A stretch of 64,000 bases of DNA. It comes from Anaerolineales bacterium (GTDB taxonomy: Bacteria; Chloroflexota; Anaerolineae; Anaerolineales; Villigracilaceae). Shown here piece by piece: positions 1 through 40,905 of this stretch; position 1 is the first letter of the stretch, and every line of letters begins with the position of its first letter. Below the pieces are notes generated by a model. The model saw only the letters and a program-made list of their open reading frames with translations. It had not been told where the DNA came from and made no database searches. The translations under genes were made by a program, and so were the position numbers. The stretch covers positions 774-64,773 of the forward strand of contig JASEHI010000004.1 of NCBI GenBank assembly GCA_030018695.1, read 5' to 3'.

Positions 1-92
1 GCATTGGGCCCAATCAAAATGTTGAATGGTCTCAGGGCAATATCCGCACGTTTCAAGCATTTGTAACGCGACACTTCGATTTTACTGAACAT
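1..92 (-). CDS. 5' end of a P-loop ATPase gene (AAA_15/21, OLD/RecF-like N-terminus); partial, continues past the left edge
   Basis: Not in the ORF track because it is open-ended. My translation from the ATG at 92-90 is MFSKIEVSRYKCLKRADIALRPFNILIGPNA. AGGAGG lies 3 nt upstream. It starts 48 nt after the SNF2 stop on the same strand. The FNILIGPN run normally precedes the Walker A motif in this ATPase class. Confidence 0.45.
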   Translation of the reverse strand, partial: MFSKIEVSRYKCLKRADIALRPFNILIGPN

Positions 93-140
93 GGGCCTCC
101 TTCGCGGAATCCTATCCTCTATTGTAATGGCAAACGCCGT

Positions 141-3100
141 CTATTTTGCCTGCCCCTTTGAAAGGATTTCACGGAACGAAACGATATACCGGACTTCGAC
201 CTGCTCTTCTGGTTTCAAGATACTCGCCGGATTCTGGATCATGTACAGAGTCGGACTGGAGGCGGTATTCAGGACGGCGTACAGGAAATACTCTTCGCCA
301 AAACGCTGTGCTTTGAACCATTCGTTCTGCGTCAGTGCCACGGAGCTGGAACCTGCCCTCCCTTTCACTTCGATATACCGCCGTTGGCCGTCTTTCCCGC
401 TCGAGCGCACGTCGAAGCCCAGATTCTCCTTCGAGACGTCCTCCGGGAGGCGACCTTGCGCTCGCTCATGATCCATCGTCACCTGCATGGCGATCGCCTC
501 AACCTGCGGGTCGGTGACCATCTCGTCCGCCCCCGCGGCCGGGACGACGCGCACCGCTCCCAGGAAACGCGGCGTGGAGAGGGTCAGGTTGCGCTCGCGT
601 TCCAGGTTGCGTTTCAGGTCCGACTTGGAATTCTGGTAACGTTGCATTTGCTCTTCTTTATTCCGGATGACCAGATCTACATTCTCCCCATTTTCGTGCC
701 TGATTTTCAAATTGATCAAGTCACCATCCAATTTCACGATCAACTGGTCCAGCGACTTCAACCCGTACTTCTCCTTGACCGCCGCCTGGCGCTGGCGCTC
801 CCTGAGCAGGTCCAGGCGGTAGGACTCCAGTTCGGGCAGCAGGATGCCCAGGGCCTTGCTCTGAACCGAATCCAGGGATGACTGCTCCCCTCTCCTTCCA
901 GGAGCCCCACAGGGGTGCTTCGCGAAGGGGCCGGGGGAAGCCCCCAGAATGGGGGTGAGGTCGCCCTCCTGCAAGTCCCATAAAATGGCCGGGTTGACCG
1001 GGGTGACCGCGCCGCTGCGCCCGTCGGCAAAAAGCGCAAACAGGCGCGTTCCGGCGATCTCGTTCTGCCCGTCGCGGATCTCGCCCTGGTAGAAGAGCAG
1101 CGTGCCGTCCATCAGCCCGTCCGGGTCAGTGAAGAGCGCCCCTTCCTTCATGGCGACGTCCAGGTTGCGCTCCACCCAGGTCAGCAGGGCTTCGAACAGC
1201 GGGGCCCCAAAGGTGACCAGTTCCGCCTGGGAGACGCGCATCGAGGCGTCCTTGTCGAAGGTCGCCAAGGGATAGCGCCGCAGGAGCGGGGCGAACTGCT
1301 TCTTGAAAGTCTCTTCCTCGCCGACCTGCCGCAGGGCGGACGGGACGCTCTCCACGCTCAAGAAGGCGCCCTCGGGGTACTCGGCGACTGTCTTCGGCTG
1401 CCACTTGCCGCCCAGCATCTCCATCGCCCGCTTGAAGAAAGCCGCAGTGTATTCCGGGATCAGGCGGTGCTCGCGCGCCTGGTCGGCCATCTCGCGGATG
1501 CGGGTGTAGTCAATGAAGCGGGTGGCCAGGCTCTCGCCCAGTTCCTCGCGCACCCGGGCGATGTACTCCGGGTCCACCTTGACCTCGATCTCGCGCAAGA
1601 TCTCGTCCATGCTGCGCGCCCCGCAGGCCGCTTCCACCAGCAGTTGCGAGAGATCCTGGCCCTGGATGATGTCGCCCAACACATCAAAGACCTTGTCACT
1701 GCCGAGCGCCTCGCGGATTTCTTCCAGTTTCTTGAACAAAGCGGTCAACACCTGCCCCTCGCGCGTATCCGTAGCCACCAGATTGAAGATAAAGACTTCG
1801 CGCGTCTGCCCGTAACGGTGAATGCGCCCCATACGCTGTTCCAACCGGTTCGGGTTCCACGGGATGTCGTAGTTAACCATCAGATTGCAAAATTGAAGGT
1901 TGATGCCTTCGCCGGCCGCCTCGGTCGCCACCAGCACTTGGGCCTCGTTCTTGAAGACCGACTCGGCCCGGATGCGTTCCTCCAGCCCCATCCCGCCGTG
2001 GATGGTGCAGACGCTGTAGTTCCAGCGGCGCAGGTTCTTTTCCAGATAATCCAGCGTGTCGCGCGACTCGGTAAAGATGAGAACTTTGGAACCGGGATTC
2101 TGGCGATTCAGGTCTTCGAGCGCTGTCTTGAGATGGCGTAACTTGGCCTCGGCCGGCGGAGCGGAGTTGGCGATGACCCTGGCCTGGTCAATCAGCCCGT
2201 CCAGCGTGTGCAGTTCTTCTACGAGTTCTTCGCGGTTCTCGGCGACGCTGAGCGTTTCCCATACCTCTTCCTGCTTCCAGCGCTCCTCCTCGCTCAGATC
2301 CTCGACTTCTTCGAAGTCGTACCCTGACTCGTTGCGATTCTTCTGCTCTGCGCCATGCAGCAGGTCCTCCAGTCGTTTCTTGCGCCGTTCGAGTGAGCGG
2401 AGCAGAGCGAAGGTGCTGGAGGCCAGCCTCCGCTGCAGGATGACCAGGGCAAAGGCCACGTTGCGGCGTTTGTCCTTGCTGAGGGCTTTGCCGTACTGCT
2501 CGTTGACGTAGCGCGACAGGGCATTGTAGAGTTCCTTCTCGGGGTAACTTTCCACGCCCAGGTTGAACGGCTTCGTAATTACATAGCGAGGCAAGAAAAT
2601 ATCACGACCCTCGAAGTCTTTCATGTCTTCCTTGAGCCTGCGGATGAAGAGCGGATTCTCCTGCTGGCGGATGGATTCAGCCACCATGTCTGTCGTTGCG
2701 AAGAAGCCCGGCTCCAGCAAATCCAGGAACAGGCGGAAGTTCTCCGGGTCGCCGCGATGCGGGGTGGCGGTCAGGAAGAGCAGGTGCGTGCAGATCTCCG
2801 AGAGCCTCTCCCCCAGCCGGTAGCGGATGGTCTTGTCCAGTTTTTCGCCGTAGCGGAAGGCGGACATTTTGTGCGCCTCGTCCACGACGATCAGGTCGAA
2901 TTGTACCGAGGCCAGGCCAGCCAGGATGTCGTCCTGTTTGGCGAAGTCAATCGAGGTAATTAATTGTTGCTCGCGTGCCCAAACATTCTGCCCGTAGAAA
3001 GCACCCATAATGCCGCGGTCTACGACCGTGAAAGTCTCCTCGAAGCGGTCCTTCATCTCCCGCCGCCACTGGTCCTTGAGATGCCCTGGCGATACGATCA

Positions 3101-3548
3101 GGATGCGCTTTGCCAGGTGGCGCAGTTTCAGTTCCTTGATAACCAGGCCGGCCATGATGGTCTTGCCGGCGCCGGGGTCGTCGGCGATCAGGAAGCGGAT
3201 GCGCGGCAACTTTAGCACGTGTCCATACACTGCTTCGATCTGGTGCGGCAGCGGGTCAACTTTGGAAGTGTTCATCGCCAGCAGCGGATCATATAACGAT
3301 GCAAAGCGATAGCGATGGGCTTCAAGAGCCAGGAACACGTGGCGTGGGTTGGCGGTAAACTGCGCCTTGATCTCCCCGCCCTTCACCTGTTCCAGTTCGG
3401 ACTTGGGCAGCATCTGGTCAATGTGGGTGCGCGAGTTCACCGTCGCGCCCACGATGCGAATATATTCACCGAGGTCTTCGATGAGATCAACTTTGATCGG
3501 TTCGGGCCAGCGTGGGCCCTGGATGATACTGCCGGGAGTAATGTTCAT
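141..3548 (-). CDS. SNF2-family DEAH helicase with a C-terminal DUF3883 / restriction-endonuclease-like domain
   Basis: Helicase motifs ADDPGAGKT (I), VVDEAHKM (II), LTATPHRG (III) and QRMGRIHRYGQ (VI). The C-terminus reads RRYIEVKGR...LTQNEW...EEYFLYAVLN. I chose the start at MNITPGS (3548) because the duplicated fragment at 4643-4773 begins at the same ATG. Confidence 0.85.
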   Translation of the reverse strand: MNITPGSIIQGPRWPEPIKVDLIEDLGEYIRIVGATVNSRTHIDQMLPKSELEQVKGGEIKAQFTANPRHVFLALEAHRYRFASLYDPLLAMNTSKVDPLPHQIEAVYGHVLKLPRIRFLIADDPGAGKTIMAGLVIKELKLRHLAKRILIVSPGHLKDQWRREMKDRFEETFTVVDRGIMGAFYGQNVWAREQQLITSIDFAKQDDILAGLASVQFDLIVVDEAHKMSAFRYGEKLDKTIRYRLGERLSEICTHLLFLTATPHRGDPENFRLFLDLLEPGFFATTDMVAESIRQQENPLFIRRLKEDMKDFEGRDIFLPRYVITKPFNLGVESYPEKELYNALSRYVNEQYGKALSKDKRRNVAFALVILQRRLASSTFALLRSLERRKKRLEDLLHGAEQKNRNESGYDFEEVEDLSEEERWKQEEVWETLSVAENREELVEELHTLDGLIDQARVIANSAPPAEAKLRHLKTALEDLNRQNPGSKVLIFTESRDTLDYLEKNLRRWNYSVCTIHGGMGLEERIRAESVFKNEAQVLVATEAAGEGINLQFCNLMVNYDIPWNPNRLEQRMGRIHRYGQTREVFIFNLVATDTREGQVLTALFKKLEEIREALGSDKVFDVLGDIIQGQDLSQLLVEAACGARSMDEILREIEVKVDPEYIARVREELGESLATRFIDYTRIREMADQAREHRLIPEYTAAFFKRAMEMLGGKWQPKTVAEYPEGAFLSVESVPSALRQVGEEETFKKQFAPLLRRYPLATFDKDASMRVSQAELVTFGAPLFEALLTWVERNLDVAMKEGALFTDPDGLMDGTLLFYQGEIRDGQNEIAGTRLFALFADGRSGAVTPVNPAILWDLQEGDLTPILGASPGPFAKHPCGAPGRRGEQSSLDSVQSKALGILLPELESYRLDLLRERQRQAAVKEKYGLKSLDQLIVKLDGDLINLKIRHENGENVDLVIRNKEEQMQRYQNSKSDLKRNLERERNLTLSTPRFLGAVRVVPAAGADEMVTDPQVEAIAMQVTMDHERAQGRLPEDVSKENLGFDVRSSGKDGQRRYIEVKGRAGSSSVALTQNEWFKAQRFGEEYFLYAVLNTASSPTLYMIQNPASILKPEEQVEVRYIVSFREILSKGQAK

Positions 3549-3630
3549 GATCAAATGCCCACTTGCCTGTATACGGGTAGGTTGCCAAGTAATCGCCAAC
3601 TAACCGCCGGTTATTTGCCAGGCAGGGCTG

Positions 3631-3692
3631 TGGCGTGTTTGGCGTGTTTCTGGCGTCTTAATGGCGTGTTTGGCGTGTTTCTGACGCCTTTA
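3631..3692. repeat. Tandem duplication, 2 x 31 bp (TGGCGTGTTTGGCGTGTTTCTGRCGYCTTWA); each unit contains GGCGTGTTT twice
   Basis: Direct reading gives 3631-3661 versus 3662-3692 with 3 mismatches. It spans the stop codon of the AlbA_2 gene and lies just upstream of the SNF2 start. Confidence 0.8.
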
Positions 3693-4572
3693 GTCGATAA
3701 AAGGTGCCTTTTCCGGTCAAACCAACTTGTTCAAGGATACCTTTCTGCACCAAGTCTGCAAGCTCTCGGCTTGCTGTGCGCGTGGATACCTGGCCGAGTT
3801 CCTGATATTCACTATTTGTGATGGAACCTTTTTCTTCAATCAACATTACTGCCCTGACCTGTCGCTCGCTCAATCTCAATGAGCGGAGTTGCCCCTCAAC
3901 CAAAATGTCATGGCGGAAAGCAACCCATAAAGCCCCCTGTTTTTCTTCAAACATAGGTTCAGGCAGTTTCGCCGCGGCGCATTCATCCAAAATCTTCTGG
4001 ATACCGCTGCCCCAGCGTTCGATCCAGCCGATATTGAAGAAGATTTCGGCGATCAGGCGACGCCCTTTCAAATTGCACAGCTTGCGGAATCGGCGTAGTT
4101 GTTTGGGGTCGAGGTCAGTAAGTTTGGCGCGCGGTTCGACAACCTGATCCCAGGTCATACCGACTTTTTCCAGGACGGCGCGAGTCAAGTCATCGTCGCT
4201 CATCTGGCGGTTGCTCTTGCCGACGCGCTTGAAATAACGCCCCCGACACGGAACCGGCTTGATAGCACTTTCGGCAACCTGGATGGCAACGACGGTTTTA
4301 CCTTCACGGGAAAAATGCTCTATCTGGTGTGGGTGTACGTGCGTGGCTTGGGCGATACGGTTGGTCCAATCTCGCAGAGTTTCCTTGCCCAGGGGTAGAC
4401 CTTTGACCGTGCCGTCATCTGCAACACCGACCAGCAGCACCCCGCCGTTGGCGTTGGCAAATGCGGAAATGGTCTCAACGGCCTCTTCGTCAAAACTTTC
4501 CTTGAACTCTATCGTTTCCGATTCTCCCTCAGCCAGCAGGCGGTTGAGATGAAAGACGCTTTCTTTGGTCAT
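3658..4572 (-). CDS. AlbA_2 (Schlafen-type) DNA-binding domain protein with C-terminal winged HTH; RecG-like putative transcriptional regulator family, with the central ATPase-like part apparently shortened
   Basis: N-terminus ESETIEFKESF...ISAFANANGGVLLVGVADDGTVKG. Central IGWIERWGSGIQKI. C-terminal HTH ITNSEYQELGQVSTRTASRELADLVQKGIL. Confidence 0.7.
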   Translation of the reverse strand: MTKESVFHLNRLLAEGESETIEFKESFDEEAVETISAFANANGGVLLVGVADDGTVKGLPLGKETLRDWTNRIAQATHVHPHQIEHFSREGKTVVAIQVAESAIKPVPCRGRYFKRVGKSNRQMSDDDLTRAVLEKVGMTWDQVVEPRAKLTDLDPKQLRRFRKLCNLKGRRLIAEIFFNIGWIERWGSGIQKILDECAAAKLPEPMFEEKQGALWVAFRHDILVEGQLRSLRLSERQVRAVMLIEEKGSITNSEYQELGQVSTRTASRELADLVQKGILEQVGLTGKGTFYRLKASETRQTRH

Positions 4573-4642
4573 TGCACTCCTTCAGATTTCATTGGCTTTT
4601 CGTTCCAGGTTTGAACTGATAAAAAGTAAGCCGCCTGCGGCT

Positions 4643-4773
4643 GTGCGCGAGTTCATCGTCGCGCCCACGATGCGGACATATTCACCAAGGTCTTCGACAA
4701 GGTCAACCTTGATCGGTTCGGGTCAGCGTGGGCCCTGGATGATACTGCCGGGAGTGATGTTCATGACATCAAG
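4643..4773 (-). pseudogene. Duplicated 5' fragment of the SNF2 helicase gene (about 42 codons with an in-frame TGA)
   Basis: About 92% identical to 3427-3554. It reads MNITPGSIIQGPR*PEPIKVDLVEDLGEYVRIVGATMNSRT, and homology then ends. Confidence 0.8.
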
Positions 4774-4799
4774 AACCCTTCGTGATTTAACTGTATCAC

Positions 4800-5063
4800 A
4801 TGATATTGAAAATTGGGAGACGCGCGGATGTGAAAGCCAATCCGCACAAATTTCGACACACATTTGCGATCAATTTTCTCCGTAATGGGGGGAACATCTT
4901 CGCTTTACAGGCCATCCTGGGACACACATCTCTGGAAATGGTAAAGCGATACCTCGCAATTGCGCAAGCAGATATCGAAGTCGTTCACCGGAAAGCATCA
5001 GTTGTTAATTGCTGGAACCTGGGGACAATCGGCATCGAATTGGCGCCCTCAATTCTCAACTAG
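4800..5063 (+). pseudogene. C-terminal fragment of a tyrosine recombinase / phage-type integrase
   Basis: NPHKFRHTFAINFL...LQAILGHTSLEMVKRYL carries the HxxR, LGH and catalytic Tyr boxes. The whole N-terminal two thirds of the protein is absent. Confidence 0.7.
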
Positions 5064-5089: not shown

Positions 5090-5171
5090 TCCTCGCCGGG
5101 GATGGTTTAGCATTCCGGCGTATGAAAGGCTGTTAACCGCTAGGTTCGAGGTTCAAGTCCTCGGCGAGGAG
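5090..5171 (+). tRNA. tRNA-like element (probable pseudo-tRNA or att remnant); the anticodon arm cannot be folded
   Basis: 7-bp acceptor TCCTCGC/GCGAGGA. T arm CGAGG-TTCAAGT-CCTCG. Possible D arm GGGA/TTCC. Variable-arm-like hairpin AACC-GCTA-GGTT. Positions 5118-5134 form no 5-bp stem with a 7-nt loop. No CCA is encoded. Confidence 0.3.
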
Positions 5172-5176
5172 CCTTC

Positions 5177-5200
5177 AAGCCCGAAAGGGCTTTTTTTTTT
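5177..5200 (+). terminator. Rho-independent terminator
   Basis: AAGCCC-GAAA-GGGCTT followed by a run of 10 T. Confidence 0.7.
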
Positions 5201-5203
5201 ACT

Positions 5204-6742
5204 TCATACTTTATACAACAGGTCCGCGAATCGTCTGAGCATTTCGCTGACCACGCCGCGCAGGGGCATTGTGGCAGCCATGCCATAGATGGGCGCGCTT
5301 TCCCCTTTCTCTTCCGGATTAGCCCGGACATGCTTCACGGCTGTCCGCAGATCGGCGATGAATTTCTCGGCAACGCCGGGTTGAGTATGGCGCAGCGTTA
5401 CAGCAAGGTGAACTGACGGGGGTTTTTGGAGTGGATTTAGATTCCACTTGCGGACAGCCATGTAATCCATGACCTTATAAATATCCACTGCCTCGGAGGC
5501 GAAGGAAATGATCCACAGCGGATCGCCGAGCACGCGCAAGTCAGGGATGGACTCGATGCCTCGCTTTATACTATCCGCCGTCTGCAGAATTTTTCCGCTT
5601 GCCTCGAGATAGCCTTTTTCGCCCAGCGAAACCATCGCCGCCCAGCAGACCGCGCTCAAGCCGCCGGGACGGCTGCCGCTCATGTTGGGCGAGAAATACA
5701 GCCCACCCGGCCAATCGGCCGCGGTGAAATACTGATAACGCCGCAATTCCTGACCGCGATAGAGGACCACGGATGTGCCTTTGGCGGCATAGCCGTATTT
5801 GTGCGTATCGGCGGAAATGGAGGTCACGCCGGGCAGTCGGAAATCAAAGGGTGGGACGGGGTAGCCCAGTTTCTCGGCCCAGGGGAGGATGAAACCTCCC
5901 AGGCAGGCGTCGGTGTGGAAGCCGATCCCCCTTTCTCGCGCCATTGCGGACATTTCAGCGATCGGGTCAATCACGCCGTGCGGGAAGGTCGGCGCGGAGC
6001 CGATGATGGCGATGGTGTTGCGGTTGAGCGCCTTTTTAATGGCTTTCAGGTCGGCGCGGAAATCGGGGCCGAGCGGCGTGCGAACGATTTTGATCCCGAA
6101 ATACTGCGCGGCTTTGTCGAAGGCGGGATGCGCCGTCTCGGGAGCGACGATCTCGGGCCGGGGGATGCCTTTGCGCTCGCGCGCCTGGTCGCGGTAGGTC
6201 TTCATGGCAAGCAGGATGCTCTCGCTGCCGCCGGAGGTGACCGTACCGCAGAATTCGTTCGCTGTTTCCCCCGCGCCGAGCATCTGCGCGGTCATCGAGA
6301 CGATTTCCGCCTCGAACTTGGAGACGCTCGGCCAGAGGTCGGTGTGCAGCGGGTTGGCCTGTGAATGGATGGCGTAGACGCGGTTGAGGAAATCAATATA
6401 AGCCGGGTCGCCGTGATAGACTGCCCCGGAGACGAAGCCATCTTTCCAGCGCGCGGCCTCTCGATCACGCAATGTTTCCATCCCAGCGATGATCTCCTGG
6501 CGGTCGCGGCCAGTTTCAGGCAGGCGGGAAAAGGTCGGGAAATCGCCCCGGTATGGCTTGAGCGCAGGCTCCAACCGCTCCATGATTTCCCGGTATTCTT
6601 TCTCGATCATGGCCTGCACCGAGGGGATGCGCCGCAGGGTTTTTTCCAGCCTTGTCAGCAGGCGCGGGTTTATCCGCCCCAGATGAGTGTGCAGGAGTTT
6701 AATTTTGTCCATCATCCATCCATGTTCGGTGTTTACCCACAA
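5204..6742 (-). CDS. PLP-dependent group II decarboxylase, sphingosine-1-phosphate-lyase-like
   Basis: [17 protein letters not shown] and [20 protein letters not shown] (PLP lysine in the HKYG context). Confidence 0.8.
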
Positions 6743-6902: not shown

Positions 6903-8477
6903 TTAAGAATTCAGCCGCGCGCAAATCGGCCGGTTAGCCTGATAGAGGTTTACAAATTCCTTGAATAATTGGTCGTGGATTCTTCGGTTAGCCGGGTTGG
7001 CTTGAAAAGTATTGGTGATCTGCAGGCGCGCCGCGATTTCGTCGAATGTCGTCAGGCCGAGCGCGACGGTGGCCAGGAATGCCGCGCCGCGCAAACCGGC
7101 GCGGATCGGGTCTTTGACCTGCCGTATCGTGCGCTTCAGCACGTCGGCATGGATCTGGCACCAGATATCCGATTGCGCCCCGCCGCCGATCATGTTGATT
7201 GGCTCCATCCGCCGCCCGGCGAACCGTTCGACGCATTCGAGCAGCCAGCGGGCGTTATAGGCCACGCCCTCGAACACGGCGCGGACGAGCACGCGGCGGT
7301 CAGTCTTGAGGGACAGGTTGAAGAACCCGCCCCGAATCAACGCGTCTTCGACCGGCGTCCGCTCCCCGACCAGCCAGGGAGTGAAGATCACGCCTTCGCT
7401 CCCGGCCGGGGCCTGTTCGGCCATGCGGTCAAAGACTTCATAAATGTTGCCCGGAGGCGCGCCGGTCCGAAGTTCGTCTTCGGCGTAGAGCAGGTTGTCC
7501 CGCAGGAAATTCAGGCAGGCGCCGGCGCACTCCTGTTCATTGGCGATGTAGTATTTGCCGGGTATCGCCGAAGGCAGGGAGGCCATGCTGTGGAGCAGAT
7601 CAGTCTTTTTGAAGGGGACGTGGCAGGAAATCCACGACGAGGTGCCGAGGTAAAGATGTGCTTCGTAATCTCTCACCGCGCCGGAGCCGACGGCGGCCGA
7701 TTGCGCGTCGGTGGCGCCGGCGACGACCAGGGTCTTCTCTGACAGGCCAAGTTCCCGGGCGGCCTCCGCTCGGAGCGGGCCGAGGACGTCTAACGTGCGC
7801 CTGAGTTCGGGCAGTTTTTCCCGCTCGACGCCAGCCATCCCCAGTAGACGGTTATCCCAGAGGATGTTGTAGATATCGCGGTTGTCGGTGAGCCAGTGCA
7901 GATTGACGGAGTCGTAAGTCGCGGCGACCTGGCCGGTCAGGCGCATGTTGATGTAATCTTTAGGCTCGAGGAATTTGTAAGTTTGCCGGTAAATTTCGGG
8001 CAGTTCGTGTTTGACGAACAGGATGTGGGCGAGGGAATCTTTGCCCGAAGGTGTTGGCACGCCGCCGGTCAGGCGCAGCCAGGTCAGCAGTTTCCCGATC
8101 CCATAGCCCTGAATCTTGAAGATGCCATTCGTTGCTTTCTGGGCATACCGCGCGCCGCGCGTGTCCATCCAGAAGATGGCATTCATCAACGGGCGTCCGT
8201 CTCTGCCAACGGCGAGGGTGGTGGAGTACAGGCTGGCGCAGTTGACGGCGAGGATGTCTTCGGCCGGAACCGGGTTTTGCCTGATCACCCGCTGCGCCGC
8301 CCGCAGGATGGCCTGCCACCAGTCGTCCGGACGTTGCTCGATCCCGCCGTTGGGCAGGAAGAGGGTCTCGACCTTCTCGAATTCGCTGGCCAGGATTTCC
8401 CCGCGCGTCGAAACCAGCCCCACTTTTGGGCCGGAAGAGCCCAGGTCTATTGCCAGTGTGTATTTCTCGTTGGGCAT
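6903..8477 (-). CDS. FGGY-family carbohydrate kinase (xylulokinase-like)
   Basis: N-terminal YTLAIDLGSSGPKVGLV, and FGGY C-terminal domain IGGGAQSDIWCQIHADVL. Confidence 0.85.
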   Translation of the reverse strand: MPNEKYTLAIDLGSSGPKVGLVSTRGEILASEFEKVETLFLPNGGIEQRPDDWWQAILRAAQRVIRQNPVPAEDILAVNCASLYSTTLAVGRDGRPLMNAIFWMDTRGARYAQKATNGIFKIQGYGIGKLLTWLRLTGGVPTPSGKDSLAHILFVKHELPEIYRQTYKFLEPKDYINMRLTGQVAATYDSVNLHWLTDNRDIYNILWDNRLLGMAGVEREKLPELRRTLDVLGPLRAEAARELGLSEKTLVVAGATDAQSAAVGSGAVRDYEAHLYLGTSSWISCHVPFKKTDLLHSMASLPSAIPGKYYIANEQECAGACLNFLRDNLLYAEDELRTGAPPGNIYEVFDRMAEQAPAGSEGVIFTPWLVGERTPVEDALIRGGFFNLSLKTDRRVLVRAVFEGVAYNARWLLECVERFAGRRMEPINMIGGGAQSDIWCQIHADVLKRTIRQVKDPIRAGLRGAAFLATVALGLTTFDEIAARLQITNTFQANPANRRIHDQLFKEFVNLYQANRPICARLNS

Positions 8478-9043
8478 TTCGATCTCCTCGATAGATATAG
8501 CAACCCGACACTTTCATAAGTATGGTGGTCGAGTAGCCCCGAACGTCGTACTGAGCCTGTCGAAGTATGCTCTTTGAGGGGCGTATCGAGACCACACTTC
8601 AAGTCAAGATCATGCTGTTGGAATACTACCCGGCGATGTTATCAATTATACATGAGGCCACTTTTTCAGTGCGCTCACAGGGGATTATTAGGCTGTCTTG
8701 GAAATAGCCGGCATTTTCATGCTTTGTGGTGTCAAGCAGACATGATGTCTCATTGGGATTTGCCGTGTTTCGGCGGCAAATGTGGGACAAATTGCCAATT
8801 TGCCCTACGCCTTACCAGCATATGTGCTGGTTCCCGGTGATTCCCAGAGAGCCTTTTTTCTTGTATAATCTCTTATCGTGAACCGGAGCCCCGACTTTCT
8901 CTCTTTGATTTTGATGCCTGTGGACATGGGTGGCGCATTTATGATCTTGGGATTTATGCCAATGACGATTGAGCGAAAACCGCCCAGCAGGACTTGGACC
9001 GGGATCGTGACCCCTCCAAAAATTTCTGTGCTGTATGCGTCTA

Positions 9044-9904
9044 GTTGCAGTCGGTGGGGTGGTCTCCCACCCCACCGCTGCTACAGAACCGTGCATGAGA
9101 CTTTCGACCTCACACGGCTCCTGAGCATACGGGCCGTTGTCATCGGTACCATAACAACGAACCTTACCATTGTTGTGGCTTGACACCTGAACTGGTTGGA
9201 TGGCAGAGATTTGGTTATCCTCTGCGGTCTTCAGTACGTCAAAGACGCCTGCCATAAGACCCTTCACCTTCCAGTGCCTGTGTCTTCCCGTATACCCGCC
9301 CCACGTCAGCCTATCTCTGGCATTACCCAGAGCCTTAGCTTGTTTCGACAGGCTCAACACAAGTCTTGGGGCATCCCACCTGCCTATGGCTTACGGTTGG
9401 TTACCTGCTCCGCCAAAAGTGCAGGCGAAGAGCCACAGGAGGTTACTCCGTTCCGAGTGTCCATTGTTTCGTGACTTTAGGATGGCACTTCGCTTTGCGT
9501 GCCTTCGGCAACGCCGGTATCCTTTCGAGTGGTTACCATGCACCGATGTACTGCATGGCCTGGATACAGTCCCTTTTGGGTCTTGCCTGTCAGCCAAGTT
9601 TGGCAAGTTCTGCACACTTGCACCTGCGGCAAGTGCAGGTGTGACGACGCTTCAACCACACCTTCACTCATCGTTATCCATAGCCACTTGCTTGGGGCGA
9701 TGGCGACTTTTGGCTAGTCGCTTATCCCCTTTCCTTCCCGCTTCTGACCCGCGTTTACCAGGCGCACGCCAGGGGAGGGTGCTTTCACTCCACCACTTGG
9801 AGGGTAAGAGTTTCACTTACATGAACACTCAGTTGTCAAGGTTCGATGACCTTGCCGCTCAGCCCTCGTACCTTACGGTACAATTTCGAGCGAACGGGTC
9901 GCAC
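9044..9904 (-). mobile_element. Group II intron RNA, ORF-less (no maturase/RT), inserted in an attC-like site
   Basis: The 5' end is GTGCGACCC. Domain V at 9120-9086 reads GAGCCGTGTGAGGTCGAAAGTCTCATGCACGGTTC, with the AGC triad, a 2-nt bulge and a GAAA-type loop. Domain VI at 9081-9047 has a bulged A 7 nt from the 3' end (...CTGCAAC). No RT motifs appear in any frame. Confidence 0.8.
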
Positions 9905-10028
9905 ACAAGCGCGTGCAGCCGACGTTGCTACCGCGCCGCCCCAGCGAAGGCTCTGGTTATTCGGGCGAGTCTTGCCCGCGTAGGTGTCTCTAACACCCGC
10001 AACGCGGCTGACGCGCAGGTCGTTAGGC
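9905..10028 (+). other. attC-like recombination site 0. Its first 5 nt (GTCTA, 9039-9043) are separated from the rest by the intron.
   Basis: Reconstituted R'' is GTCTA|AC and R' is GTTAGGC (10022-10028). The stem GCGCGT(G)CAGCCG / CGGCTGACGCGC is 12 bp with one extrahelical G. Total length is 129 nt. Confidence 0.55.
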
Positions 10029-10049
10029 AGCAAGAGAAGGAGCAATCAT

Positions 10050-10739
10050 ATGGTGGAAGAAGATCCTATATTTCGCAAGCACGATCGATACAAGGCGAGT
10101 AGCTACAGCAGCTACAACTTCAAGATGCCGTCGCGTTACGACACCTGCTTCTGGCTTTGGTTCTGCCAGGCCGCGCTCTGGGATCGGACGCTAGTCGATG
10201 AGTTGCGGCCGACCATCAGCTCGCTTCGCATCCTCGACGTCGGTTGCGCCACAGGCCGGCTCCTGGAAGCACTCGCCGAAGCTGGAGCGTCTGAACTCTT
10301 TGGTACTGACCTAGCGCCCCGGATTCTTGAGGTAGCGCGGGAGAAGCTCTCCGAGACCGAGGCCAAGGTAGAACTCCAGACCGCCGATGCCGAGGATTCT
10401 CTGCCTTGGCCCTCGGAGTTCTTCGATGCCGTCACCCTCACGGGAGTGCTCCACCACTTCTTCCGCCCGCGAGACGCTCTCTCGGAAATCCGCCGGGTAC
10501 TGCGTCCAAGTGGCCGACTCCTCATCACCGATCCCTGCTTCTTCCCTCCGATCCGTCAAGTGCTCAACCTGGCTCTTCGCGTCGCGCCGCACGACGGTGA
10601 TTATCGGTTCTATTCACAGAGAGGTGCCGTTGAGCTCTTGGAGCGCACAAATTTTCATTGTTTGGGAGCCAGACGCGTAGGCTTGTGGGGATACCTCATC
10701 ACAGCCGCAAAGCCAGACGCGTCCAGGGACACTGCCTAA
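10050..10739 (+). CDS. Class I SAM-dependent methyltransferase (Methyltransf_11/25 type), cassette-borne
   Basis: ILDVGCATGRLLEALAE (motif I) and VLRPSGRLLITD. AAGGAG lies 7 nt before the ATG at 10050. The ORF-track start at 9984 would read through the R' box. The TAA stop lies inside GCCTAAC. Confidence 0.8.
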   Translation: MVEEDPIFRKHDRYKASSYSSYNFKMPSRYDTCFWLWFCQAALWDRTLVDELRPTISSLRILDVGCATGRLLEALAEAGASELFGTDLAPRILEVAREKLSETEAKVELQTADAEDSLPWPSEFFDAVTLTGVLHHFFRPRDALSEIRRVLRPSGRLLITDPCFFPPIRQVLNLALRVAPHDGDYRFYSQRGAVELLERTNFHCLGARRVGLWGYLITAAKPDASRDTA

Positions 10740-10860
10740 CAACTCGCTGCACCTGACGGGGCTACAGCTGCGCGATTCAAGCATTCTGAGGCAGCATAGG
10801 TGGCTTCGGCGGCCGCGAGTCTTGCCAGCGCCGCCCCGCAGCTTAGCCGGAGCGTTAGGC
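10734..10860 (+). other. attC-like recombination site 1
   Basis: R'' GCCTAAC (10734-10740) and R' GTTAGGC (10854-10860), 127 nt in total. Inner pairing CGGGGC/GCCCCG and GGCGGC/GCCGCC. It shares GAGTCTTGCC with site 0. Confidence 0.55.
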
Positions 10861-10885
10861 ACCTGGTCTAGGAAAACCATACATT

Positions 10886-11749
10886 ATGAAAGCGTATGAA
10901 TACATCACAGCAAAGCAAATACAATGGGCGTTAAATCGTGGTATTCCGCTTGTCGGTAGTAAAGGTGATAAAGGTCGCCCCGCATATACTCCTGAACTCA
11001 ATCAAAATCTATTTGAACCTTTGAGTTTAGATACCCGCAAAAGTTTTGAACAAGGTGACGGGGGCGAAATCAGTGGAAATCCAGCCAAAATGCAGGCGGT
11101 ACATTCATCATCCGCTTTAGGCGTCAATGTTTTTCAATATTGGCAAAATATTGGGCAAGTGTCCGCTATTGCGTCTGCTTGTGGTTTTTGTCGAAAAGGA
11201 AATATTGTCTCCGAAAAAATTGTGTTTGAAGATAAATATCCAGTGGACGACAATTTAGATAAATTTCCTAAAGCCCCGAACATTGATGTTGTTTTCCACA
11301 ACACCGACTCGGCTCAATTCAAAAGATTTGCCGTCGAGTGTAAATTTTCAGAAGCATACGGCTTGCAAAAACATACCGGCTTGAAGCCCGCATATCTTGA
11401 GTTAATTCATTTGTGGTCAGACATTCCAAGTTTGTATGAATTCGCAAAAACTATCTGCCCAAATGAGAACTTTACCTATTTTCATTCTGCTCAATTAATC
11501 AAACACATTCTTGGTCTTAAGAGAAGTTTTGGCAGGAGTGGTTTTAGGCTTCTCTATCTTTGGTATGATGTTTTAGGCAAAGAAGGGGCTATTCACCAAG
11601 ACGAGGTTAATGAGTTTTCTGGTGTTGCAAAGGCTGATGGAATTCACTTTAACGCCATGTCATATCAAAAGTTAATTCTTGTGGCATCCAGAGAGTACAG
11701 GCAAGAACACACTACATACATCAAGTATTTGAGCGAGCGATATTTGTAA
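10886..11749 (+). CDS. Uncharacterised PD-(D/E)xK-type nuclease-fold protein, AT-rich cassette gene
   Basis: PNIDVVFHN...KRFAVECKFSE matches a D...ExK core. The segment is visibly more AT-rich than all its flanks. The ATG lies 25 nt after the R' box. Confidence 0.55.
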   Translation: MKAYEYITAKQIQWALNRGIPLVGSKGDKGRPAYTPELNQNLFEPLSLDTRKSFEQGDGGEISGNPAKMQAVHSSSALGVNVFQYWQNIGQVSAIASACGFCRKGNIVSEKIVFEDKYPVDDNLDKFPKAPNIDVVFHNTDSAQFKRFAVECKFSEAYGLQKHTGLKPAYLELIHLWSDIPSLYEFAKTICPNENFTYFHSAQLIKHILGLKRSFGRSGFRLLYLWYDVLGKEGAIHQDEVNEFSGVAKADGIHFNAMSYQKLILVASREYRQEHTTYIKYLSERYL

Positions 11750-12017
11750 TTCACAAGGTTGTTGTAAAATTGGGCAAGGCACTTTTAATAGCCAGCGAGT
11801 CTTCAAGTTCTGCCGTGCCTAACACAGCGTGGGTGTGTCCTGAAAGTCATCGTCTGCTTGCTGGCCGCGAAGCGAGTCCAGTCCTGATTTCGACAGGCTC
11901 AATCCAAGGGTAACGGTCAGGCGGCCAGGTTTCGACAAGGTCTCGACAAGCTCGACCCGGCGGCTCAACCTACCAGGTAGCAGGCCCTTCGGCAATGCAG
12001 CCGGGTGACTGGGTTTC

Positions 12018-12066
12018 GACACCGTTCGTGCCGCGAACAACGGCGGCACGCCGGTGCGAGACGGCA
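12018..12066. repeat. REP-like hairpin repeat (family A), copy a
   Basis: GACACCGTTCGTGCCGCGAACAACGGCGGCACGCCGGTGCGAGACGGCA, with the stem CACCG..CGTGCCGC / GCGGCACG.CGGTG. Confidence 0.8.
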
Positions 12067-12181
12067 AGCTCAACCTGCCAGCTATGTCGAAGCGTTGCCG
12101 AAGGTCCCTGAGAAAGGGAAGCAAAGCAGCAGCCCGTAACACACAGTGCTGTGCATAAAGTGAACCCTTCGACAGGGTTTC

Positions 12182-12251
12182 GACACCGTTCGTCCACAGG
12201 ATCGCTTCACTGATGCCGCGAACAACGGCGGCACGCCGGTGCGAGACGGCA
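12182..12251. repeat. REP-like hairpin repeat (family A), copy b, carrying a 21-bp internal insertion
   Basis: Same core as copy a, interrupted at 12194-12214. Confidence 0.75.
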
Positions 12252-12373
12252 GGCTCAACCCGGCGGCTCAGGGCAAGTCTTGCAGCACCGACATGTTAGC
12301 CCCTTAAGGGGAGCAAGAGAGAGCCGAGCCTGCGACGGTTTTTTTTATTTTCCGGGGTGTTTTTTCTTTTTTA

Positions 12374-12604
12374 GTGGAAGAATTGCGGGCAACAATAAAA
12401 GCCTCCGCTCCTGACGCAGAAGAAATAATTAGTTATCAAATGCCTACTTTCGCTCTGAAAGGTAATATAGTCCATTTTGCTGCCTGGAAAAAGCATATTG
12501 GGTTTTATCCAACGTCAAGCCAAGCAATAGATTCGGCAAGTTGGGAAGAGCTTTGTGTGCTAAAATCCGGTTATGAAAGTTCGCGCCGTTATCAAACTCA
12601 TTGA
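12374..12604 (+). pseudogene. DUF1801 (YdhG-like) domain fragment
   Basis: EELRATIKASAPDAEEIISYQMPTFALKGNIVHFAAWKKHIGFYP. The N-terminal part is missing and the C-terminus diverges where hicA begins. Confidence 0.5.
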
Positions 12605-12668
12605 AGTAGATGGCTGGTATCTGGTTGTGACAAAAGGTAGCCATGTATCGCTTTCTTATCGTTATTGA
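12573..12668 (+). pseudogene. hicA: Truncated hicA toxin (31 codons)
   Basis: My translation is MKVRAVIKLIEVDGWYLVVTKGSHVSLSYRY*. Homology stops right after the conserved GSH, at the point where the hicB ATG (12643) begins. Confidence 0.6.
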
Positions 12669-12858
12669 AAAAGCAAATGGCAATTACTCGGCATATTGCC
12701 CTGACTTACCTGGCTGTGTTGCCACCGGCAAGACACGCGAAGAAACAGAGCGCAATATGCACGAAGCCGTAGAAATGCACGTACAAGGCATGATTGAAGA
12801 TAAAATGCCCATCCCCGAAAGCGTCACGCTTGCGGAATATATCGCCGTAGCAGTGTAA
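12643..12858 (+). CDS. hicB: HicB-family antitoxin
   Basis: YRFLIVIEKANGNYSAYCPDLPGCVATGKTREETERNMHEAVEMHV. Confidence 0.8.
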   Translation: MYRFLIVIEKANGNYSAYCPDLPGCVATGKTREETERNMHEAVEMHVQGMIEDKMPIPESVTLAEYIAVAV

Positions 12859-13132: not shown

Positions 13133-15466
13133 TTACTTGATCGCTGGCACAGGCGCCTTTGAACGCCGGATCGCCCAGGTGACGCCGACGAGTAAAATGA
13201 TAGCGATTAAGAAGGCTCCGACACTGACGCCTCCGCTGGTCGCGCTGTACTTGACGATGATCGGGGCAGCCAGCAGGCTGACCAGGTTGACAACCTTGAT
13301 CATCGGATTCAAAGCTGGCCCAGCGGTATCCTTCAGCGGGTCGCCAACTGTATCGCCAACCACGCCCGCCTTATGCCTTTCGGAACCCTTGCCGGTATTC
13401 TTTTCCAGATCGCGGGGTTCGTCCTCGATGGATTTCTTGGCGTTATCCCAGGCGCCGCCCGCATTTGACATGAAGACCGCCAGCATTTGGCCGCTGAGAA
13501 TGACACCCGCCAGGAAGCCGCCCAGGGCTTCGACCTGCAGGATCAACCCAACCGCGATCGGCATTAGCACCGAGATGGTTGCCAGGGGGATCAATTCCTT
13601 TTGCGCCGAGGCGGTGGAAATGTCAACCACGCGCGCATAATCAGGTTTAACTTTACCTTCCATCAAGCCAGGGATCTTGAACTGGCGGCGCACTTCTTCC
13701 ACAACCTTGCTGGCCGCACGGCTTACGGCGCGGATTGCCAGCGAACTGAACAGCCAGGGTAATGCCCCGCCCAGTAAGAAGCCGACGAAAACCCTGGTGT
13801 CAGAAATGCGAATATCCTTGATCAACTGGACCCCCTGCTGTCCCGCGTCGATCAATTGCTGCTGGACAATGCCGATATCGGTAATATAGGAGGCGAAAAG
13901 GCTGACCGCGGCAATGACTGCCGAGGCAATCGCGATGCCCTTGGTGATGGCCTTCGTTGTGTTGCCCACTGCATCCAGATCAGCCATAATCTGCCGCGCC
14001 TTCATTGTCTCTTCGTCCTTCATACCCTGCCAGGCCATCTCGCCAATACCGTTGGCATTGTCCGATATCGGCCCGTAGGAGTCCATGGCTACATTGTTGC
14101 CGGTGTGGCTCAACATGCCGATGCCGATCATGGCGACGGCGTACAAGACGTAAGTTGAATGGGTCTCACCGCCATAGAGCAGCAAGGCAGCGATGAAGCT
14201 GATCACGATCACCACCAAAGCCCACACGCTTGACTCCATGCCGACGGAAAGACCCGAAAGGATCGTCGTCGCCGGACCGGTTTTGGTCGCCTCCACGATT
14301 TCCTTGACTGGCGCTTTTTTCGTGGATGTAAAATAGGATGTCAGCGGGTTGAACGCCACCGCCAAACCAACGCCGATCGCAGTCAACATCGCCAGCCGCC
14401 AGTCTTGGGCATAGAAAATAGCCAGCAGGAAGGACCACAGCACGGTGTTGATGCTGGAAACTTCGTAAGAACGGAACATGGCTTCTTCAGCATCGTGGGC
14501 GCGCAAGAACTTGATCGGGAATTTCACCCACATCGGGACGGTGAAAGTACCGATGATGGAAGAAATCACGCCAATGGCGCGGATGATGAGCGGAAAGACG
14601 ATCCACTTCAGGCTGTGGGTCGGGTCAATTGCCATGAGCGCCAGGCCGAGCAGCAAGCTGGAAACAATGGTGACCTCGTAGCTCTCGAAGATGTCAGCCG
14701 CCATGCCGGCGCAGTCACCCACGTTGTCGCCGACCAGGTCGGCAATGACAGCCGCATTGCGCGGGTCATCTTCGGGGATGTCTTTCTCGACCTTGCCCAC
14801 CAGGTCCGCGCCGACATCCGCGGCCTTGGTGAAAATACCACCTCCCACGCGCATGAACAATGCCAGGAGCGTGCCACCGAAACCGAAGCCGAGCAGAGCG
14901 TCGGGAGAGGCCTTGCCGAAAACGATGAAAATAAGCGTGCCGCCAAAGAGTCCCAGGCCGTCTACCAACATTCCGGTGACCGTTCCGGAGTAATACGCAA
15001 TGGAGAGTGATTCGTTGAAACTGCGCCGGGCTGCAGAAGCCGCGCGGACATTGGCCTGGATCGCCATGCGCATGCCCAACTGACCCACGAGCAGTGAAAA
15101 TAGCGCCCCCATGATAAAGGCTATCGTCCGCCCGATGGCGACGATAATCTGGGCATTCTTGCCGAATTCTTCTGCGGCTTCGCGGGTTGGGGGTACGATG
15201 TAAACGCTCAGGAAAAGCACCACTGTCAGCGCGCCGATGACCGGCAGGATGGTGCGCAATTGGCGGTTCAGATAACTATCTGCACCGATGCGGATCGCAT
15301 TCCACACCTCTTGCATTTTTTGGGTGCCTTTGTCCTTTTTAAGGACAATACCGCGTAATAACCAGGCATAAAGCAAGCTGGCAAACGCAGTCAGCACCAC
15401 TCCCACAATTGCTATCTGCTCGAACGAATTTAAACCATGTCGGCTGCCAAGCCAAAGCAAGTCCAT
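13133..15466 (-). CDS. hppA: Membrane-bound proton-translocating pyrophosphatase
   Basis: GGIFTKAADVGADLVGKVE, DNVGDCAGMAADIFESY and GDTVGDPLKDTAGPALN. The start at MDLLWL is preceded by AGGAGG. Confidence 0.9.
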   Translation of the reverse strand: MDLLWLGSRHGLNSFEQIAIVGVVLTAFASLLYAWLLRGIVLKKDKGTQKMQEVWNAIRIGADSYLNRQLRTILPVIGALTVVLFLSVYIVPPTREAAEEFGKNAQIIVAIGRTIAFIMGALFSLLVGQLGMRMAIQANVRAASAARRSFNESLSIAYYSGTVTGMLVDGLGLFGGTLIFIVFGKASPDALLGFGFGGTLLALFMRVGGGIFTKAADVGADLVGKVEKDIPEDDPRNAAVIADLVGDNVGDCAGMAADIFESYEVTIVSSLLLGLALMAIDPTHSLKWIVFPLIIRAIGVISSIIGTFTVPMWVKFPIKFLRAHDAEEAMFRSYEVSSINTVLWSFLLAIFYAQDWRLAMLTAIGVGLAVAFNPLTSYFTSTKKAPVKEIVEATKTGPATTILSGLSVGMESSVWALVVIVISFIAALLLYGGETHSTYVLYAVAMIGIGMLSHTGNNVAMDSYGPISDNANGIGEMAWQGMKDEETMKARQIMADLDAVGNTTKAITKGIAIASAVIAAVSLFASYITDIGIVQQQLIDAGQQGVQLIKDIRISDTRVFVGFLLGGALPWLFSSLAIRAVSRAASKVVEEVRRQFKIPGLMEGKVKPDYARVVDISTASAQKELIPLATISVLMPIAVGLILQVEALGGFLAGVILSGQMLAVFMSNAGGAWDNAKKSIEDEPRDLEKNTGKGSERHKAGVVGDTVGDPLKDTAGPALNPMIKVVNLVSLLAAPIIVKYSATSGGVSVGAFLIAIILLVGVTWAIRRSKAPVPAIK

Positions 15467-15740
15467 AAATCCTCCTGTGTAATATGGTTTTTTATTAACA
15501 AAACGACCCATACGCCAAGGCATGTGGGTCGCCTCGCTGTAATTTTACCTAACACAAGATGAAAAGTCAAACATGGTTTTCTGGGAAAGATTAGGATTCG
15601 ATTAGAATCTTACAAACCGCTTGACTTTCACTCTCGAACTATTGTATAGTTTTAGGCAGTTGGATATTGTCCTTACCCGGCACCGCTGCCTCAGGCTGCT
15701 GTGCCGTTTCTTTCGTCATACCATCCTTGAAGGAGATCGA

Positions 15741-40897: not shown

Positions 40898-40905
40898 AGT
40901 ATCTT

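Follow-up and report, generated by a model that had tools for sequence, protein, structure and literature searches.

An ORF-less group II intron in an attC site of an Anaerolineales genome, apparently a member of an undescribed attC-targeting family

An intron splits an attC site in a cassette cluster

We analysed a 64-kb stretch of a metagenome-assembled genome (MAG) of the Anaerolineales (Chloroflexota), namely positions 774 to 64,773 of contig JASEHI010000004.1 (assembly GCA_030018695.1), hereafter the window. Genes for an FGGY kinase (6903-8477, minus strand) and an H+-pyrophosphatase (13133-15523, minus strand) flank a small cluster of integron cassettes, and one attC recombination site of this cluster, attC1, is interrupted by an 861-nucleotide (nt) group II intron that lacks an open reading frame (ORF) for an intron-encoded protein (IEP). 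Coordinates of all features are collected in Table 1. A sequence-only reading of this DNA had proposed such an intron here and a host that is not a proteobacterium, which agrees with the lineage of the MAG.

Read on the minus strand from 9904 to 9044, the intron starts with GTGCGACCC and stops with CTGCAAC, and its ends, GUGCG ... AAC, agree with the boundary consensus GUGYG / AY. An Rfam scan matched a single family in the 64-kb window, RF00029, whose full model was covered at 9122-9044(-) with 57.6 bits (E 1e-8; gathering score 40). Domain V (DV) reads G-AGC-CGUGUG..., with AGC as its triad, and domain VI (DVI) is the helix GCAGCGGTGGGGTGG-GAGA-CCACCCCACCG(A)CTGC. The whole 861-nt RNA folds at -362.6 kcal/mol (z = -7.1 against shuffles), and the layout of domains I to VI (DI to DVI) was taken from the minimum-energy fold. 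The window copy keeps 222 of the 228 base pairs of a family consensus described below, on a par with the best siblings, and it preserves GUGCG, the AGC triad, the GAAA loop, a UAUGG/CCUAAAG receptor-like motif and the bulged A as its catalytic motifs. The longest sense ORF within the 861 nt has at most 74 amino acids (aa), and tblastn with the family IEP was blank across the window. The element is a group II intron with these boundaries and this fold. The sequence-only reading had placed the 861-nt extent, the ends, DV, DVI with its bulged A and the absence of an ORF just as they are found, and had suggested looking for an RF00029 match and for a fold of the domains, both of which are present. 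It erred on domain IV (DIV), described there as only a short hairpin: this is a structured stub that includes the IEP start region, with an ATG at 9256-9254 and ~10 codons.

Removing the 861 nt recreates GTCTA|AC on the plus strand, and on the intron strand the junction reads GCGCTTGT|TAGAC; ligated exons would read ...GCGCUUGU-UAGAC... there. The plus-strand flanks GTCTA|AC AAGCGCGTGCAGCCGACG...CGCGGCTGACGCGCAGGTC GTTAGGC make up a split RYYYAAC box, a 120-nt imperfect inverted repeat and a GTTRRRY box, directly followed by a ribosome-binding site and the methyltransferase ORF. A second site, attC2 (GCCTAAC...GTTAGGC, next to GTCTAAC...GTTAGGC for attC1), is separated from the first by 0.7 kb. 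When attC1 was reconstructed without the intron, its bottom strand folded with paired R boxes and beat all 200 shuffles (z = -3.1). The boxes of attC2 also pair, with a fold energy indistinguishable from shuffles (z = -0.2), and its identification therefore rests on the boxes and on a covariance model, R1, that was built from twenty sites of other loci with the window excluded. Model R1 matched attC1 (9906-10027(-), full length, 66.8 bits, E 3e-12) and attC2 (10740-10859(-), full length, 46.3 bits, E 5e-8) and nothing else in the window, the next match having E 0.5. The cassette ORFs lie on the strand opposite to the intron. The target site is an attC, entered antisense to the cassettes inside the R'' box at TTGT/T, as had been read from the sequence.

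No integron integrase was found in the 64-kb window, only an 87-aa C-terminal remnant of a tyrosine recombinase at 4800-5063 (+). With two attC sites and no integrase in the window, the cluster is therefore of the CALIN type (cluster of attC sites lacking integron-integrases). A 90 %-identical relative, locus L005, keeps the kinase and a decarboxylase but not the cassette cluster; homology ends at window 8496, and the orthologous locus supplies no empty-site allele. A look-up of identical-sequence records for the window methyltransferase, the H+-pyrophosphatase and the FGGY kinase (P0001) returned none. From a sigma-70-like promoter candidate at 8841-8869 (+), transcription of the cassettes would run through the antisense insert.

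Table 1. Features of the intron, its target and its surroundings (window positions unless marked as intron positions; EBS, exon-binding site; IBS, intron-binding site)
Feature	Position	Strand	Remarks
ORF-less group II intron, 861 nt	9044..9904	-	5' GUGCG ... CUGCAAC 3'
DI	intron 6-460	-	minimum-energy fold
DII	intron 462-527	-	minimum-energy fold
DIII	intron 533-607	-	minimum-energy fold
DIV	intron 608-782	-	minimum-energy fold
DV	intron 784-820	-	minimum-energy fold
DVI	intron 824-858	-	minimum-energy fold
DIV stub, ~175 nt	9123..9297 (intron 608-782)	-	IEP start region and last bases around the former stop codon retained; aligned to IEP-bearing L221 and L112
Domain V	9086..9120	-	AGC triad, GAAA loop and one extra C; RF00029 alignment, compensatory pairs in the family
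Domain VI	9047..9081	-	bulged branch-point A at window 9051, 7 nt before the 3' end
EBS1 hairpin	9535..9559 (intron 346-370)	-	loop ACAUCGG at 9545-9551
Candidate EBS2, UGUGCAG	9610..9616 (intron 289-295)	-	7 bp including one G-U with exon -14..-8 CUGCACG
5' exon contacts	9905..9918	-	nominal IBS1 9905-9911 (only 9905-9907 pair), IBS2 9912-9918
27-nt palindromic insert in the EBS2 loop, just 5' of EBS2	9617..9643 (intron ~262-288)	-	sibling comparison
22-nt mini-hairpin insert	9343..9364 (intron 541-562)	-	loop motif TTCGACAGGCTCA on the plus strand; common to sibling L142
Private 19-nt insert UGCCGAAGGCACGCAAAGCG	9492..9510 (intron 395-413)	-	sibling comparison
Left half of attC1 R'' box (GTCTA|)	9039..9043	+	9043 is the first 3'-exon base on the intron strand (T, IBS3 position)
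Rest of attC1: |AC of R'', L'', loop, L', R'	9905..10028	+	R' GTTAGGC at 10022-10028
attC2, unoccupied, GCCTAAC ... GTTAGGC	10734..10860	+	separates the two cassette ORFs
Cassette ORF, class I S-adenosylmethionine (SAM)-dependent methyltransferase	10050..10739	+	Pfam Methyltransf_11/25/31
Cassette ORF, REase-ARP-type restriction endonuclease	10886..11749	+	Pfam PF22558, E 2.7e-14
SNF2/ResIII helicase with NOV_C domain	141-3599	-	island-like region
Schlafen AlbA_2 protein	3658-4572	-	island-like region

Relatives of the intron occupy attC sites in metagenomes

A degenerate DV-pattern scan of representative genomes gave 94 introns, mostly cyanobacterial, none of them similar to the window intron outside DV and DVI, and blastn against plasmids gave short matches to cyanobacterial introns only, with no siblings. 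Siblings were found through a spurious 300-aa antisense ORF (9200-10102, +), whose translation matched 24 'proteins' in a public catalogue. On the contigs of these 24, sibling introns lie between short genes of one strand, as is typical of cassettes, and all siblings have the 5' end GTGCGACCCGTTCGCYCGAAA in common. Scanning JGI metagenomes with this 21-nt 5' end as probe recovered at least 120 loci, a sample biased by its single 5' motif and by short contigs, which favour short elements.

Among the matches listed, most 5' flanks read ...GTCGGCTGCAnnnnnTTGT| or near variants of it. An inverted repeat above the 95th percentile of controls was present in 50 of the 108 unique 135-nt flanks (~5 expected), and 41 of those 50 have an AAC box exactly at the stem foot, 47-122 nt upstream. 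Attribution of the 116 unique 30-nt flanks placed 84 (at least 72 %) in attC-related classes: the L''-arm motif (64 flanks), ...YYAAC-N6-12| (14) and ...GCCGCAnnAATCCTTAAT|, where insertion is one base before GTTGGGC (6). When empty sites were reconstructed, they folded into hairpins of the form RYYYAAC-stem-G(T)|T(T)RRRY. An alignment of the twenty sites from other loci shows a 9-bp arm, one bulged (extrahelical) column on the 3' arm and compensatory changes in 9 of 12 pairs, and model R1 also found same-strand arrays elsewhere, with six sites in L151 and five each in L132 and L112. In locus L161 an integron integrase (TIGR02249, 482.7 bits, cut-off 265) is divergent from an attC array and next to an intron copy; it was the one strong match of a tblastn search with an IntI1 query, and was confirmed with NCBIfam. 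The nearest long ORF is opposite to the intron strand in 31 of 43 attC-type copies. The first 3'-exon base is T in most attC-type copies.

Several loci show variations on this arrangement. L161 holds a complete integron, with the intron at 3288-4131 (-), attC-model matches at 41-161 and 2604-2724 (+) and intI at 5091-6179 (+); flanks of its sublineage read ...GCCTAAC-N9|, on the strand opposite the attC bottom strand, sense to the cassettes and ~9 nt after the AAC box. L116, L133, L163 and L208 have a common non-attC 5' flank, (C)TATACTTG(Y)TCT..., which indicates a sublineage that was probably retargeted to another conserved site. One attC in L102 (7857-9076) carries two introns: an ORF-less IIB-type copy antisense in R'', and a second intron on the other strand, ~25 nt past R' and just after the terminator-like hairpin GCCAAGCAAAGCTTGGC. 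The latter matches RF02005 (group-II-D1D4-6) with 100 bits, has a 425-aa IEP without an endonuclease (En) domain at 9787-11064, and behaves in a IIC-like way. In L051, L022 and L087 (Desulfamplus sp. contig CAXXLW010000007.1), domain V motifs lie only 650-830 nt apart on one strand.

The family is IIB-type by its encoded protein and RNA features

Full-length relatives (L112 and L221 were examined) encode a 547-aa protein with RVT_N, RVT_1, GIIM and HNH domains, which matches TIGR04416 with 342.7 bits. The closest solved relative of this IEP is the T.el4h reverse transcriptase (RT) of Thermosynechococcus (6me0_C, E 2e-102, residues 9-544), from an intron that we take to be of the IIB/chloroplast-like (CL) type, whereas the IIC RTs 6ar1, 7uim and 5hhl match over the RT part only, at 1e-31 to 1e-39. 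Class C IEPs have ~420-470 aa and no En domain (PMC4424553), and because the family IEPs carry HNH, the family appears to be IIB/CL-like and not IIC. The DV triad of IIC introns is CGC (PMC7923331), that of the window intron AGC, and the ribozyme (non-ORF) part of the family is ~780 nt. At the DNA level the intron resembles IEP-bearing introns of the cyanobacteria Acaryochloris, Nostoc and Tolypothrix, in collinear matches that put the missing ORF at about intron 650-747; the resemblance is to these En+ introns and not to enterobacterial IIC-attC introns. Judged by the AGC triad, the relatives' IEP and the RNA features, the intron is IIB/CL-like, not IIC.

Target choice probably follows base pairing with the 5' exon

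In the family the EBS1 hairpin has the form GGCCA-stem/(A/G)GU-N7-U/stem, then AACCACUCGA, with a 7-nt loop. This loop pairs 6-8 contiguous bases with the copy's own 5' exon in 13 of the 32 scored copies, for example as ATTAAGG/CCTTAAT, GACCATG/(T)ATGGTC and ACATTGG/CCAATGT. The mean run with the own exon is 4.64, compared to 3.38 +/- 0.27 when exons are permuted, and 0 of 1000 permutations reached the observed value. On this covariation the 7-nt loop is EBS1, with IBS1 as its partner. The register of insertion tracks EBS1 as well, ACA.. loops being found with ..TGT|T and CAA.. loops with ..TTG|TT. A segment of the EBS2 type lies ~65 nt upstream of EBS1; its usual sequence is (C)AUGCAG, which can pair with CUGCAU in the attC L'' arm, and it changes with the class of target (GUUAG/CUAAC, GCACU/AGUGC, GUAGA/UCUAC and AUGAAG/CUUCAU), switches that support the placement of the candidate EBS2.

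Pairing is often short in the sites that the copies now occupy. Runs of EBS1 are five or fewer in 17 of the 22 attC-resident copies, many of them only 3-4. Some evidently represent a single intron copied into non-cognate sites, such as L125 and L199, whose EBS1 loops are identical and whose exons differ. Between attC sites that resemble each other, either relaxed pairing is enough or hairpin recognition contributes. IIC-attC introns have no EBS2, and their target is the attC hairpin plus an IBS1 of 3-4 nt.

ORF-less copies form a lineage that has moved

Of 27 copies with both ends, four are of the IEP-bearing length, 2323-2347 nt; two have 1354 and 1756 nt and 21 have 434-1035 nt, a ratio of ORF-less to IEP-bearing copies that is biased by short contigs. 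Close siblings carry the same DIV stub as the window copy. In alignments with L221 and L112, its segment GTCTTATGGCAG...ACGTACTGAAGAC corresponds to the ATG and the first ~11 codons, a DIVa-like IEP start region; the stub also preserves the bases surrounding the old stop codon, and ~1.56 kb of ORF interior is missing. Eight ORF-less members, 64-92 % identical, share the 228-pair consensus with 95.4 % canonical cells and compensatory double changes in 102 pairs, stub helices included. When partners were slid by 1-3 columns as a control, ~40 % of cells were canonical and 10-17 pairs compensatory, a large margin for a structure derived from the alignment on which it was scored. By this covariation the ORF-less copies are under selection on their fold.

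Three pairs of ORF-less copies are near-identical and have different flanks (L177/L211, 99 %; L161/L202, 97 %; L125/L199, 96 %). With near-identical copies in different attC sites, the ORF-less form has therefore itself moved, which for a group II intron would imply an IEP acting in trans. The family is presumably a trans-mobilised ORF-less lineage. The sequence-only reading had offered a fossil or a trans-mobilised element; for the family, the shared stub, the covarying fold and the moved copies favour the second.

Compared with its siblings, the window copy has three insertions, every one in an unpaired loop region. Two had been listed before as host repeat insertions, and both are real: they are the 27-nt palindrome and the 22-nt mini-hairpin, with the third, of 19 nt, missing from that list. 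The palindrome belongs to a 30-nt repeat, CACACCTGCACTTGC(A/C)GCAGGTGCAAGTGT, found at window 9614-9643 and again at 42618-42647 (+) inside ORF 40798-43554, 33 kb away, and the more distant sibling L143 has this palindrome at the identical intron position. The mini-hairpin is an element of ~22-24 nt with a conserved loop, TTCGACARGCTCA, and a covarying stem of 3-4 bp (CCC/GGG, CAC/GTG, TGC/GCA); it occurs in the window at 9343-9364, 11889, 8552 and 42254 (plus-strand coordinates), in L142, L115, L114 and L223 and at other loci, at varied positions and in both orientations, in intron copies and elsewhere. It matched 30 times in the 515 kb of loci from the family and 4 times in the window, and never in 611 kb of loci that are mostly cyanobacterial. 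The 30-nt palindrome may be a second kind of small mobile hairpin.

A proposed explanation and its alternatives

We propose, with a probability of roughly 0.8, that the element is a non-autonomous ORF-less derivative of an IIB-type (chloroplast-like) intron, from a family with En-containing IEPs that homes to attC bottom strands, and that it resides here in attC1 of a CALIN. Insertion would have been by reverse splicing guided by base pairs. The EBS2 segment UGUGCAG would pair with the conserved L'' arm CUGCACG, and ACA at the start of EBS1 with the UGU whose end lies in the G-T-T of R'', which would place the intron at GT|T. Reverse transcription would be performed in trans by the IEP of a full-length relative. 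The EBS1 of the window copy fits ...CCGAUGU| and not the present exon; most likely relaxed pairing let the copy into a non-cognate attC, as happened with several others, or else its EBS1 drifted later. The split R'' should disable attC1 for IntI recombination, and the 861-nt antisense insert would sit between the possible promoter at 8841-8869 and the methyltransferase cassette.

A number of results weigh against this proposal. The window EBS1, ACAUCGG, faces ...CGCUUGU|, and only ACA/UGU and one G-C at -7 pair. Covariation of EBS2 with IBS2 at the level of copies was not significant by permutation, and in a separate contingency test of EBS2 variants and attC-arm variants 7 of 12 were complementary where 6.1 were expected, few cases in all. 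One of the three loop insertions of the window copy adjoins EBS2. The nearest relative recovered, L142, shares about 93 % identity with the window copy over aligned columns, or 79 % when BLAST counts gaps; tblastn with the family IEP found no IEP gene in the 64-kb window, and a promoter scan of the intron strand found no sigma-70-like promoter facing into the intron. The class-specific Rfam models for domains I to IV, group-II-D1D4-1..7, which had been suggested as a check, gave no match for the window even at E <= 10 and matched none of eight family members, full-length ones included; the IIB/CL assignment thus rests on the IEP and RNA features and not on a curated RNA class model. The metagenome sample is also biased, as described above.

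Four other explanations were weighed. The sequence-only reading had taken the intron for the IIC-attC (S.ma.I2) type, so that it would be an ORF-less derivative recognising the attC hairpin plus a 4-nt IBS1. Its insertion point and antisense orientation are those published for IIC-attC introns, at TTGT/T in the R'' bottom strand (PMC7923331, PMC3001079), and the 3-bp EBS1 pairing of the window copy resembles a short IIC IBS1. With AGC and not CGC in DV, a ~780-nt ribozyme that has an EBS2-type loop, a 547-aa HNH IEP in the relatives that is nearest T.el4h while IIC RTs match far more weakly and in the RT part only, and DNA similarity to cyanobacterial En+ introns, we consider this very improbable and rejected the class on triad, IEP, ribozyme size and DNA similarity. 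Another alternative keeps the family and has it recognise the folded attC hairpin in the manner of IIC introns, needing 3-4 bp of IBS1 and pairing further only incidentally. Such recognition would suit the many attC-resident copies with 3-4 paired EBS1 bases (17 of 22 with five or fewer), the lack of copy-level covariation of EBS2, an insertion point always at the hairpin foot, and the striking convergence with IIC-attC introns on one position. It is improbable given that EBS1 covaries significantly with its own exon, with 6-8 bp in 13 copies, that the register (G|TT or GT|T) follows EBS1 (CAA.. or ACA..), that EBS2 switches with the target class (GUUAG/CUAAC, GCACU/AGUGC, GUAGA/UCUAC), that sublineages with other EBS1 loops occupy non-attC sites, and that the IEP has an En domain typical of homing to double-stranded DNA.

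The target itself could be some other palindromic repeat, such as a repetitive extragenic palindromic (REP)-like element or a terminator, with the resemblance to an integron coincidental. There is no integron integrase in the window, the fold energy of attC2 is no better than that of shuffles, and the 90 % relative lacks the region. Yet imperfect inverted repeats of 120-130 nt, bracketed by RYYYAAC/GTTRRRY boxes, lie precisely between single ORFs of one strand, the model includes an extrahelical base and compensatory changes in 9 of its 12 pairs, up to 6 sites form same-strand arrays in other loci, a TIGR02249 integrase is divergent from the array of L161, and the cargo (toxin-antitoxin genes, methyltransferases, restriction enzymes) is typical of cassettes, which makes a coincidence scarcely credible. 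The window copy could also be a dead fossil, immobile and possibly a non-splicing relic that interrupts attC1, in which case the family would say nothing of its activity. This we think doubtful. In its favour, no IEP was found in the 64 kb, EBS1 and the exon are mismatched at -4 to -6, three insertions are private or semi-private, no near-identical sibling or recognisable promoter was found, and the cluster has lost its integrase, with only the remnant at 4800-5063. Against it, 222 of 228 consensus pairs are intact, matching the best siblings, the insertions are all in unpaired loops, the catalytic motifs are intact, and EBS2 pairs 7 bp with the exon.

Beyond the window, we lean, with some reserve, towards a more general form of the proposed attC homing. 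A widespread and undescribed En-encoding IIB (CL) lineage would have specialised independently on attC bottom strands, reaching the G-T-T of R'' that the unrelated IIC-attC introns also enter, but via EBS/IBS pairing to the L'' arm. Its ORF-less derivatives would be more numerous than the autonomous copies and would move in trans from one attC to another, in a relationship like that of long and short interspersed nuclear elements (LINE/SINE), and sublineages would have shifted to one base before R'' or to the top strand ~9 nt after R''.

Other features of the window

Downstream of the REase-ARP cassette, the segment 11817-12302 begins with a GCCTAAC box at 11817 and, after ~480 nt, has a GTTAGCC box near 12296. 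Two direct repeats of 70 nt (12029, 12214) lie within it, together with several motifs of the TTCGAC type, and model R1 did not recognise a third attC at 11817-12302; the segment may be a degraded or invaded third attC. After these repeats, 12374-12858 holds two short plus-strand ORFs that by eye have the look of a HicA/HicB-type toxin-antitoxin pair, a candidate for typical cassette cargo. To the left of the decarboxylase lies an island-like region (141-5063) that holds the helicase and Schlafen genes of Table 1 and the recombinase remnant at 4800-5063, at the place where the 90 % relative has a fructose-1,6-bisphosphatase (FBPase) gene.

Comparison with known systems

Introns in attC sites and ORF-less introns mobilised in trans are both already known kinds. 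The window copy is apparently a member of a large attC-targeting IIB-type family, dominated by non-autonomous copies, that has not been described: the literature searched yielded no account of a family of En+ IIB-type introns that homes to attC sites, or of ORF-less derivatives of one, though its coverage is incomplete, so that an earlier description is possible. Targeting of attC sites and terminators is regarded as confined to class C, with other lineages homing to ordinary sequence sites, and ORF-less introns are considered rare in bacteria and unlikely to have been overlooked (PMC4424553).

If confirmed, the family would be a second, convergent association of introns with integrons, a natural system of non-autonomous bacterial retroelements, and a possible programmable route to target attC sites. 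Cassette dynamics would be subject to a new influence as well: a cassette whose R'' is split should become frozen, and its transcription may be blocked or redirected by the insert. Intron surveys based on RTs miss such ORF-less elements, and translated spurious ORFs are a practical way to find them.

The ORF-less introns of Thermosynechococcus elongatus are reportedly mobilised in trans, in work ascribed to Mohr et al. in 2010. Related IEPs act in trans in both the splicing and the mobility of these chloroplast-like introns (cited in PMC4424553). The present family resembles them in its IIB/CL-type ribozyme, the deletion of the ORF from DIV, the existence of IEP-bearing relatives and non-autonomous proliferation, and its nearest solved RT (6me0_C) comes from the same organism. 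The T. elongatus introns belong to one cyanobacterial genome and ordinary sequence sites, whereas the present family is found in many metagenomes and a Chloroflexota MAG, in attC sites, and the window copy has no IEP partner within the 64-kb window.

Among non-IIC introns associated with cassette arrays, UHB.I2 and H.ha.F1/F2 are IIB introns (IIB1/CL1 or class E) from hypersaline samples, where they accompany integrons or CALINs (Sonbol & Siam 2021, PMC7923331); in the literature searched this was the one report to link IIB introns to integrons. UHB.I2, present as one copy with an IEP, lies sense to the cassettes just after an attC, with atypical ends (UUGCG..GU) and no conserved target found, and H.ha.F1 and F2 are 5'-truncated fragments. 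For IIB introns that study reports no attC-specific homing, no ORF-less lineage and no family.

A close parallel in behaviour is the IIC-attC introns, the S.ma.I2 lineage (Quiroga 2008; Leon & Roy 2009/2010, as summarised in PMC3001079 and PMC7923331). Like them, the present family enters the attC bottom strand antisense to the cassettes, at TTGT/T inside R'', splits the recombination site and occurs also in CALINs. Unlike them, it has an AGC triad in place of CGC, a ~780-nt ribozyme with an EBS2-type loop, IEPs with HNH En and RVT_N domains that resemble T.el4h and not class C RTs, and EBS1 pairing of 6-8 bp in cognate sites, and most recovered copies are ORF-less. A different class of intron here reaches the same attC nucleotide, apparently by base pairing and mostly as ORF-less copies.

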